Source: Eledone cirrhosa (lineage: Eukaryota). Taken from it: 64,000 nt of DNA. Positions within the stretch are counted from its first letter, which is position 1, and each line of letters opens with the position of its first letter. Positions 28,101-63,442 of this stretch are shown piece after piece. The translations under genes were made by a program, and so were the position numbers. The notes beneath the pieces were generated by a model that saw only the letters and a program-made list of their open reading frames with translations, did not search any database and had not been told where the DNA came from. The stretch covers positions 67,456,001-67,520,000 of the forward strand of contig OZ024745.1 of assembly GCA_964016885.1 (NCBI GenBank), given 5' to 3'.

Positions 28101-31100
28101 CCCTAACTCTAAGAATATTATAGGGTATATATGATGCTCAATGAGAGCAAGAGCAACTTATTAGAGGAGATGGAGAAGTGAGTGATAACAATTTTTGCTA
28201 CATCATAAGAAAAATAGCAATAAAAAAAATACCTATAAAATTAATTATATTTGTTTACTTTTTCTACAAGACTGTTATATATAGGTGTATATTGAAAGTT
28301 ATGAGTATATTGTTACAGAGAAAAAAGATAAGCCAAACAGCATGAAGAAATTGAATGTAATTCAATAAGTACTGTAGCGGGGCTACTTGTGTGGCGTGTA
28401 TCAATAATCTATCCATGCACGATATGGCTAAAGTCAGGCCAATCGTAAGCCATGCATGGATGTATATCAACTTCCGCCAGCTCAAAGATTTTCCCACTTC
28501 TTTTGTTTAAACTAGTCTCTTGCTGCCTTGAACTTCGAGAAGTCAAGACTGCATCATGTAGCAGTAAAGTTTCACTTCAGCCTGCCGGCCTCAATGGCCA
28601 GGCACCTTTCTTTGCTTCTTATCTCTTAATTTTGTTTGTTTATTTTTAAACGGCATGCCAACACAACTTCTGTACTCATTTCGTTTGTAAATAAAACATG
28701 TGAAAATATTATCAGGTGTTATAATGTTTTTACCACAGCCATCACCACTGGACTTGATAAGGAAAGAATCCTTTTTCCAAAGTATTTATCATAACAGTTT
28801 CATACTTCTTTTGTGGCTATAAGATTTACAACCGAACTGCACTTCTTACAACATACACTTCTCTGCTACACATAACAAACGTTACATTTCTCACTATAAC
28901 AATTAGCTGGACAACTCATCATGTGCCATCGCTAACAACAAAATAACAATAATAACTTATATTCCTTTTCTTATTAATATTATGCCAACATGGCATAATA
29001 TTATTTAACTGCTATAGTGCCAACAATGTTATACAACTTTTACAAGGTAGCTGTTTAAAAGAAAATGTTCATTATCTTTATCATTGTATCAGTAACGCGT
29101 CAGACACCATGCTTTGCAGCATAGAGCTATGGCCCTTTATGTTATGAGTTAAAATCCACCAAAGTTAACTTTACCTTTCATTCTTACAGGGTCGATAAAA
29201 TAAAGCACCAGTAATCCACTGGGGTAATTGCTGACCTTATGCCAAAAGTAGAAACATTAATTATGTTTTGGAAGGAACATTTTTAATATTCCTTCAGTTT
29301 GACAACTTCCATCTAATGTTTCCCACAGTGTCAGGTGACTTACATGTTCATTTGCTTAAAATCTAAGAACCAAATGTAACATTAATATGCTTCCCATGTA
29401 AGAAATTATTTTCATGTCAAATAACTCTAAGAACAACACACTCTGTCCAATATATTTTCACTTGAAGTTAAGAGGTCCAAACTTACTTGTGTGTTTCACA
29501 GAAATTAATGGCAAAATATTTTTACAGTCTGTCATGTATGAGACATTTGTAGGAGCTGTGCCACTGATAACAATATTCTTTTCATTGTTAGTGGCTCACA
29601 ATACTGATGTATCAGTTGTTATTTCCAAGGGTGCTTGGTTATTGCAATACCATAGCCCTTCTATCACCTATGGTAATACTTAGAGTGTGTTGGTTTTATT
29701 TAAACATTACTATAGGGAGTATGTAGTGAAACTTGTATGGTTCTGTATACAGATCTCTTCAAAATTCATCAATATTTCTCAGAAATTAAATCATATAGCC
29801 AGAACTACAATTTAATGACATACGGCTTTGTTTACTCTCAACTTTCTTAATTCATATTTTACAATTATATTTTGCCAACATACACAAATGTTTAGATTAC
29901 AATTATATAGATATATTTTATAAGCAATTTCAAACTTATTATTAATCATACTGTGATTCAAATGTTCATGTAGTCAAGAGCTAGCAACAAAATTTAACAT
30001 ATATATGCTTCCATTGTAGGAAATTAATTTAAAGTCAATTTATTTGCCTTTAAGATTATGAAATAGATACTTACTTGTTGGTTTCATACATATCTTTACA
30101 GAAACAGACACTTTCATAGAGTCTGTTGCAACTTCAGGTACAATCGTCAGTTTAATCTTTGTCTTTCCACTGTTTGGTTTAATTTTATATGATTCTGTAG
30201 GTTGCAATTTGGTTGGAACAAATTCTTGTGGTTTCACAGTTGTTTTAGATACAGTTTCCCATAAAGTTGTTTCCACATATCTAGATTCCTCTATTAAAGA
30301 CTAGAAAAATATTTCAAATGTACATGTAGTAGAATATAAACTTATAAAACAATGTGTAATATGTATCAAACACTACAAACATTGAGAAAATATATCACAC
30401 TCACCTTTACTTTTCCTATCAGATCTACCTGATAACTTTTCACATTAGTTGGTATAACAAGTGACACCTCTCCACCAGAATTAAGGTCATCACCAACATC
30501 TATATAAATAATCCTATTCTTTGGGGTATTTGTTACCCAACCATTTCCATTAGGTCTAATATCACTTGTATTACCATCAGGAACGAGAGTAATTGATGTA
30601 TCTGGTATTATATTTTCATTCTCCATTCCATCAACATTTTCACATTGAACTGCAAAGAAGGAATATTATGTAATATCATAAACCTTCTTATTTGCTTTTA
30701 AGCAAAGATTATACAAACTATATTTGATATTATAGAATTTACAACAACAAAAATACATGACAAGAAACAATCATATATCTTCACATAGAACCGAAACTCA
30801 GCACCCAATTCTAATATGATGTATTTGTAAATAACAACAACACATGCAATATCATAAGCTTAAATATATATATTATTTTCTATTTCATATATTTCTTATT
30901 TGAAAGAAATAACATAATGGGCAACTGCTTCGAGCTATTGCTCAGAAAATCCATTGTTGAATGCTATTAGTATCTCAATATCTATCTTGTCTATATATTT
31001 TAAGTCAATAACCATGCTATTATTCAATGTATATGAATAATTATCATAAAAATACAACATAACATAGCTTGTAGCATCAACATTACTACACTCTATATAT

Positions 31101-63442: not shown

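Follow-up and report, generated by a model that had tools for sequence, protein, structure and literature searches.

The stretch of DNA analysed here (the window) comprises 64,000 nucleotides (nt) of the Eledone cirrhosa genome, G000:C5:67456001-67520000, on contig C5. Judged by its sequence, it is the middle of a very large gene of the gel-forming-mucin or SCO-spondin kind, read on the minus strand. Much of it is an array of three-exon modules, each made up of a linker exon rich in threonine, serine and proline, followed by exons A and B, which together encode a domain with only two cysteines. We refer to these domains as beads and to the Pro/Thr/Ser-rich regions as PTS. An earlier note on this DNA had read the module as occurring 12 times in frame, and all 12 are present with the sizes and splice ends it gave.

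An array of modules in a mucin-like gene

A degenerate pattern for the domain start has 12 minus-strand matches in the window, where chance would give 0.14 and none of 100 shuffles yielded as many. Exon A measures 245 nt and exon B 226 or 229 nt in all 12 modules, with AG/GT ends throughout, and 11 linker exons of 153 or 177 nt are phase 1-1. The twelfth linker (31855-31241) is 615 nt long and, at the site 31873-31855, shows AA where the other linkers have the acceptor AG, with an in-frame AG 18 nt downstream; as all linkers are phase 1-1, the frame would also survive skipping of this long exon. The features of the window, in which two module types, alpha and beta, are distinguished, are as follows.

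61987..63442, minus strand: alpha module; linker 63442-63290, A 62561-62317, B 62212-61987; copy 11 of the 22 in the gene
58612..61068, minus strand: beta module; linker 61068-60892, A 59189-58945, B 58840-58612
56210..57665, minus strand: alpha module; linker 57665-57513, A 56784-56540, B 56435-56210
52835..55291, minus strand: beta module; linker 55291-55115, A 53412-53168, B 53063-52835
50433..51888, minus strand: alpha module; linker 51888-51736, A 51007-50763, B 50658-50433
47058..49514, minus strand: beta module; linker 49514-49338, A 47635-47391, B 47286-47058
44656..46111, minus strand: alpha module; linker 46111-45959, A 45230-44986, B 44881-44656
41281..43737, minus strand: beta module; linker 43737-43561, A 41858-41614, B 41509-41281
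38879..40334, minus strand: alpha module; linker 40334-40182, A 39453-39209, B 39104-38879
35504..37960, minus strand: beta module; linker 37960-37784, A 36081-35837, B 35732-35504
33102..34557, minus strand: alpha module with variant exon B; linker 34557-34405, A 33676-33432, B 33327-33102
30075..31855, minus strand: terminal module; long linker 31855-31241 (24-bp unit x23, putative alternative in-frame acceptor), A 30649-30405, B 30300-30075
26702..26797, minus strand: 96-nt phase 1-1 PTS exon leading from the last domain to the large PTS exon; this segment is also present after the domain in Octopus bimaculoides XP_052821907.1
17989..23187, minus strand: large PTS exon, 5,199 nt; 49% Thr, 22% Pro, 11% Ser (82% T/P/S), no Cys
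16868..17039, minus strand: Cys-containing exon after the PTS exon; the O. bimaculoides model P0084 finishes with the orthologous segment; Pfam gives no match above cut-off
7346..7609, minus strand: open frame with TSP1 exon (PF00090, E 1e-8)
6873..7142, minus strand: open frame with TSP1 exon (PF00090, E 2.7e-12)
5161..5493, minus strand: open frame with TIL exon (PF01826, E 1.4e-10)
2848..3066, minus strand: open frame with Cys-rich exon; no Pfam family above cut-off; matching exon at the same position in the paralogue on contig C10

To cover the whole gene, 200 kb of neighbouring sequence was added, and copies were counted per contig (C5, C10 and C2). The array runs past the window: exon A has 22 matches on contig C5, so that the earlier count of at least 12 copies becomes 22 for the gene, with the rest outside the window. 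All 22 spliced domains are 156-157 amino acids (aa) long and contain neither a stop nor a frameshift. Each has exactly two cysteines, one at either end, as had been proposed. When spliced by script, the chain from the first domain through the 96-nt PTS exon (26797-26702, an addition to the earlier note) and the 5,199-nt PTS exon, whose 1,733 codons had been counted correctly, into the next exon stays open for 6,591 aa. The gene models of O. bimaculoides, as annotated, likewise join one domain to a small PTS segment, a PTS region and a post-PTS exon, and Octopus proteins are the closest relatives found.

By sequence, the gene reads EGF, three VWD-C8-TIL assemblies, LDLa, 22 domains with their linkers, PTS, TSP1/TIL and a cystine knot, and the parts outside the window thus bear out the mucin context that had been suspected. 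In Pfam searches, VWD is recognised in D3 (E 1.7e-19) and, with the weak scores that the D1 and D2 exons give when searched alone, in D2 (1.3e-4) and D1 (0.036); C8 (4.6e-16), TIL and LDLa (1.7e-8) are also found. The gene-wide tally is one LDLa and four confirmed TSP1 exons. Of the TSP1/TIL/VWC-like exons announced downstream of the large PTS exon, two TSP1 exons and the TIL exon are recognised by Pfam, whereas the VWC-like reading of 17039-16868 is not matched above the cut-off. The cystine knot (L025:761-1105, minus strand) scores 21.8 bits against PF00007 (E 2.4e-4), below the 24-bit cut-off; its frame ends at a stop, and the same holds in the C10 paralogue. No VWD was matched downstream of the PTS region, although one of the two scans behind this negative also missed D1 and D2.

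How did the array arise? From about 33 to 63.7 kb, the window consists of a 5,777-bp unit holding one alpha and one beta module, repeated with 99-100% identity including introns; it accounts for 10 of the 12 in-window copies, and the 22 copies of the gene encode only 8 distinct domain sequences. Because the units are near-identical, the array appears to have grown recently by unequal crossing-over; whole exon-intron units would have been multiplied, starting from an F5/8C domain at this position in hemolectin-like ancestors. Between the alpha and beta types of exon A (36081-35837 against 33676-33432), 28 of the first 120 coding nt differ, compared with 4 of the remaining 123 and 2 of 104 in the following intron, a pattern that we read from the sequence as partial gene conversion with a 5' loop region staying distinct. 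Short-read DNA contigs over the unit have depths of 48, 88 and 99, compared with roughly 6-10 for single-copy pieces; they come from one sample, from which the assembly itself may derive, and as depth is not a copy count, they are weak evidence for copy number. The three short-read sets behave as genomic DNA contigs of this one sample, with no splice joints among the joints listed.

Several repeats lie outside the modules. Window introns at 379-997, 8911-9442, 9780-10010 and 26006-26391 hold long microsatellites of the (GGT)n and (AT)n types as well as a tandem repeat of 61 bp, and very high-copy short interspersed repeats lie near 24.3-24.6 kb and 27.3-27.6 kb. By eye, the intron downstream of the large PTS exon has broken endonuclease/reverse-transcriptase-like frames (12107-15103, plus strand), with similar elements in the paralogous loci.

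A predicted divergent discoidin-like fold

The earlier note had called the domain apparently unannotated, and Pfam agrees: PF00754, the F5/8 type C (F5/8C, FA58C) family, was not found above its gathering threshold in any of 6 window exons or 8 exon A variants, and no family was found for a spliced orthologue (P0004). A genome search with PF00754 returned 2 matches, neither in the three array loci of this genome. High whole-protein Pfam scores on repeat proteins, such as those for APT and Gp_dh_C, proved to be summed noise without a single passing stretch. Searching a database of 5.8 billion sequences for homologues of a single exon found nothing (20 candidates), and an alignment search found only 2 proteins among 8,000 scored. 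A HMMER profile of the 8 exon A variants matched 83 proteins among 1.84 billion, 30 of them named and many of the others single-exon fragments. A full-domain profile was then aligned from 23 full-domain stretches and 11 short proteins.

What kind of domain is this? Positions 1-129 of profile A2 match neuropilin-1 b1 over their full length (whole-chain E 1.7e-4), followed by CBM32 and bacterial F5/8C entries, and 15 of the 16 PDB matches listed for the profile are neuropilin, CBM32 or F5/8C entries. The terminal cysteine pair aligns to the terminal cysteines of neuropilin b1, and a terminal disulphide is predicted; the profile is about 20 residues shorter than b1, with shortened loops. For the orthologous O. 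bimaculoides domain, which has 83-85 identities with the window copies over 143 aa, AlphaFold predicts an all-beta sandwich (local confidence score pLDDT 93.4, global score pTM 0.85). Among 48,161 chains, neuropilin-1 is its best structural match (Z 12.0, root-mean-square deviation 2.8, 126 of 140 residues aligned), ahead of neuropilin-2, discoidin I, DDR1, IFT25 and factor VIII, and the best Foldseek match is 2orx (E 6.3e-4). The route from AlphaFold to Foldseek that had been suggested for the domain thus leads, in the orthologue, to a predicted beta-sandwich of the discoidin type. In the ESM Atlas, the similarity to a neuropilin domain reaches a template-modelling score of 0.70, which is under the Atlas bar for naming a family, and exon A alone gave low scores only. 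In a Glandiceps protein, the exon A match (1561-1604) overlaps the stretch assigned by Pfam to F5_F8_type_C (1586-1669), an overlap in sequence that links the array domains with PF00754.

Taken together, the domain is predicted to be a divergent, shortened member of the discoidin/galactose-binding-like superfamily that falls outside PF00754 as drawn, and the earlier proposal of a divergent discoidin fold is upheld by the profile, the structure model and the Atlas. One detail of that proposal fails: the 'LW' that had been matched to an FA58C tryptophan is spurious, as it lies in an insert of 14-15 aa that the O. bimaculoides model lacks, and most alpha copies have LS instead. In every copy, this insert is the first 14-15 codons of exon B and falls in the loop that is predicted with the least confidence; the domains of the C10 and C2 paralogues are shorter still. 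No CysD signature is present: the four domain types checked lack WxxW and have just 2 Cys. A homodimer prediction scored 0.00, with the alignment unused and the fold uncertain, and is counted neither way.

Related arrays and known mucins

Two further loci of the same genome carry arrays. On contig C10, exon A has 56 matches, and the fetched ends of the gene hold D3, LDLa, the array (with a period of about 2 kb), a PTS frame of 1,483 codons, one more domain, TSP1/TIL and a cystine knot; its domain is shorter, at 128 aa, again with two Cys (8 of 8 copies checked). On contig C2, at least 47 exon A copies of three sequence subtypes lie downstream of a VWD and an LDLa exon, over about 250 kb (G000:C2:401518535-401766026, L042-L051), and the end of the gene was not found within 80 kb past the last domain. 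The introns of the C2 locus contain long reverse-transcriptase-like frames, and a PTS exon lies within its array.

Beyond this genome, arrays with T/P/S-rich linkers occur in proteins of Mytilus californianus (mucin-17-like, 21 copies), Bugula neritina (16 near-full copies of 18 matches), Patella vulgata and Lineus longissimus (both mucin-2-like, 13 copies each), Liolophura sinensis (mucin-2-like, 7 copies) and Macrostomum lignano (5 copies), and a three-VWD head is present in those of Lineus, Patella and Macrostomum as well. On the strength of these sequences, the bead-linker array is a widespread spiralian design rather than a one-off, with three loci in this genome. The Lineus protein (P0001) holds, at about 1505-1650 and in repeats, another two-Cys domain that has diverged further and is not matched by the profile; it alternates with the family domain and LDLa and is likely a further unrecognised subtype of discoidin-like domain.

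SCO-spondin carries an F5/8C domain and many LDLa and TSP1 repeats, and is not known to have a large PTS domain. The gene described here shares with it an F5/8C-type domain and the order of three VWD assemblies, LDLa, TSP1/TIL and a cystine knot (PMC7333891; papers given by PMC number are cited from excerpts), but it has one LDLa, few TSP1, a long discoidin-PTS array and a 1,733-codon PTS exon. Its D1-D2-D'D3 head, folded domains amid PTS and cystine-knot tail are those of MUC2, MUC5AC and MUC5B, and the D3 Asp-Cys motif that aligns to MUC2 Asp1087/Cys1088 is kept (numbering deduced from PMC7599080). The equivalent of MUC2 Cys1130, by contrast, is absent: in this gene, as in the Lineus and Patella proteins, the C8-3/TIL3 junction is without the loop carrying this cysteine. 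TSP1 repeats and far more beads also set the gene apart from these mucins, as does the bead itself: a two-Cys discoidin fold, whereas the vertebrate CysD is Cys-rich and calcium-binding, with WxxW (PMC7599080).

F5_F8 domains have been described as a hallmark of the mucin-like proteins of lophotrochozoans (Lang et al. 2016, PMC4948705). Compared with these mucins and with insect hemolectin, the domains here fall below Pfam detection and number 22-56 copies alternating with PTS linkers; compared with the 3+2 VWD of hemolectin, no further VWD units were found after the domains, which are followed by TSP1/TIL and the cystine knot. The architecture has thus been described only in part: F5/8C at this position in lophotrochozoan mucins had been reported (PMC4948705), but long divergent arrays were not found described. 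In the literature covered (subscription journals outside the scope, and the copy numbers in figure S4 of Lang et al. not compared), neither the divergent subfamily nor its alternation with PTS in 13-56 copies was found, and the excerpts of PMC10475054, PMC11431876 and PMC10138644 contain no description of such arrays. Among secreted marine adhesives, tandem discoidin domains are also known from the Nectin of sea urchins (six tandem FA58C; PMC10057474) and from footprint proteins of sea stars (PMC9382459), where they are proposed to cross-link through glycans or proteins. Those FA58C domains, however, are canonical and database-detectable, and Nectin, as excerpted, is without a mucin head, PTS linkers or cystine knot.

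Tissue evidence comes from a limpet. P-vulgata_3 is present in all pedal mucus types and pedal sole glands of Patella vulgata (Kang et al. 2020, PMC7333891). Both of its probe primers (supplement of the same paper) translate into the mucin-2-like XP_055959230.1 (P0090), which has 13 copies of the family domain, at residues 1406 and 1681 and in the right order; they match no other fetched protein, and residue 1681 lies inside the first discoidin-like copy. As the primers map into an array-bearing Patella protein, a member of this class appears to be a secreted mucus component in a mollusc. P-vulgata_3 was published as a SCO-spondin-like protein with VWD x3, C8 x2, TIL x2 and LDLa x5 only, the array not being recognised (PMC7333891), and its interpretation as a shortened SCO-spondin may reflect a broken transcript. 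The forward primer of P-vulgata_6, a candidate for the tail of the same gene, has no match among the fetched proteins. In one supplement file of the Octopus vulgaris skin-mucus proteome (PMC10138644), 12 short peptide and accession terms were absent, a weak negative given the other species and database. Egg jelly, one of the settings suggested in the earlier note, finds nothing specific in its support: the sole tissue evidence, from this limpet relative, points to foot mucus.

Possible roles of the beads

What, then, could 22 such domains do in one chain? We consider it probable that the gene encodes a gel-forming mucin in which stripped-down discoidin beads, alternating with Thr/Ser/Pro linkers, make repeated non-covalent contacts that cross-link secreted mucus. 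Going by mucin biology, the chain would be secreted, its linkers O-glycosylated, and dimers formed tail to tail through the cystine knot, while heads would be linked to each other by the D3 cysteine that corresponds to MUC2 Cys1088. With the Cys1130 equivalent missing, the covalent polymers would be weaker than those of MUC2. By analogy with CysD, the beads would add many weak contacts, whose partners may be other beads, D assemblies or the O-glycans carried by adjacent chains. The stiffness or stickiness of the gel would be set by the number of beads and the length of the linkers, a part that CysD domains play in MUC2/MUC5. In MUC2, CysD domains embedded in PTS form contacts between molecules, and gels are stronger when CysD occurs in tandem (PMC7599080).

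Several points weigh against this picture. The binding partner of the beads is putative, and the conserved columns (C1, M7, I18, R30, P31, W36, N67, V68, C137; 24 proteins) are mostly core, which would fit an inert spacer equally; being few and structural-looking, they do not allow a ligand to be read from them. The structure model is that of the O. bimaculoides domain rather than the window's own spliced domain. Exon joining is founded on splice signals, frame and the gene models of another species; a signal-peptide exon was not located, and the exact copy number hangs on the assembly of near-identical 5.8-kb units. Seven proteins (P0003, P0021, P0023, P0033, P0044, P0085 and P0088) carry 3-7 domains after TIL/VWC modules without PTS linkers. 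Finally, P-vulgata_3 was published as 1,604 aa with a stop codon and low expression (2 fragments per kilobase per million, FPKM; PMC7333891), so that the limpet transcript may stop short of the array. As a separate observation, the linkers of the seven proteins are acidic or His-rich, and some of these proteins carry the domain beside canonical F5/8C domains.

The beads might instead form a multivalent lectin or microbe-binding array, a hemolectin-like clotting or immune trap rather than a set of structural cross-linkers. CBM32 and other sugar-binding modules have the same fold (Z 8.6-10.3; 4a42 matched), and the alpha/beta differences in exon A cluster at its 5' end, so that the N-terminal loop region is the part kept different. 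CBM32 sites need a His or exposed aromatic cluster, however, and none is found among the columns conserved in the 24 proteins; moreover, the best structural matches are animal protein-binding discoidin domains, and near-identical copies bring avidity but no diversity of recognition. Although hemolectin carries F5_F8 domains at this very position (PMC4948705), we consider such a trap rather unlikely. That the domains are inert, protease-resistant spacers which break up and stiffen the PTS chain, with no role in binding and a copy number drifting by unequal crossing-over, would agree with the conservation of core residues only (mean column identity 25%), with copy numbers from 5 to 56 between genes and with the 99-100% identity of the units including introns. 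It sits less well with the recurrence of the bead-linker design in at least four spiralian phyla and three loci of this genome, with the frame and both cysteines kept in 22 of 22 copies, and with the binding by folded domains within the PTS of MUC2 (PMC7599080), and we regard it as unlikely.

Two further explanations carry little weight. The fold resembles the C domains of factors V and VIII (Z 9.8-10.9) and an LDLa module precedes the array, so binding of anionic phospholipid or lipid films, priming surfaces or membranes, might be imagined; but such binding by C2-type domains needs hydrophobic spike loops, while the profile has the shortened loops noted above and the window domains have only two Trp and are slightly acidic or neutral, which makes it very unlikely. 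Least of all do we expect the long array to be largely an assembly artefact or a silent duplicated segment: the units are indeed near-identical and the O. bimaculoides models carry a single domain, but distinguishing substitutions yield the 8 distinct domain proteins, the same arrays occur in independent genomes, no copy has a stop or frameshift, and the short-read depth, weakly, points the same way.

Finally, we would like to place cross-linking by beads in a wider context. Neither a new fold nor a new class of molecule is revealed here. It is nevertheless possible, if somewhat short of evenly balanced, that the mucus and wet adhesives of spiralians (molluscs, ribbon worms, bryozoans and flatworms) are built on a mucin class that has gone unrecognised, whose cross-linking bead, in place of CysD, is a discoidin subfamily invisible to Pfam and independently amplified to 20-56 copies in each chain; P-vulgata_3 and other 'SCO-spondin-like' proteins published from mucus and adhesives would then be fragments of these giant chains, broken at the array. 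The architecture of invertebrate mucus and wet adhesives is poorly understood because repeats break assemblies and the domain is invisible to Pfam. The analysis defines a domain family and a recurring giant-mucin design, supplies a structural model and a small recombinant unit, and suggests that the head of one such mucin has already been published as a limpet adhesive protein, offering a convergent counterpart to the cross-linking by CysD in vertebrates.

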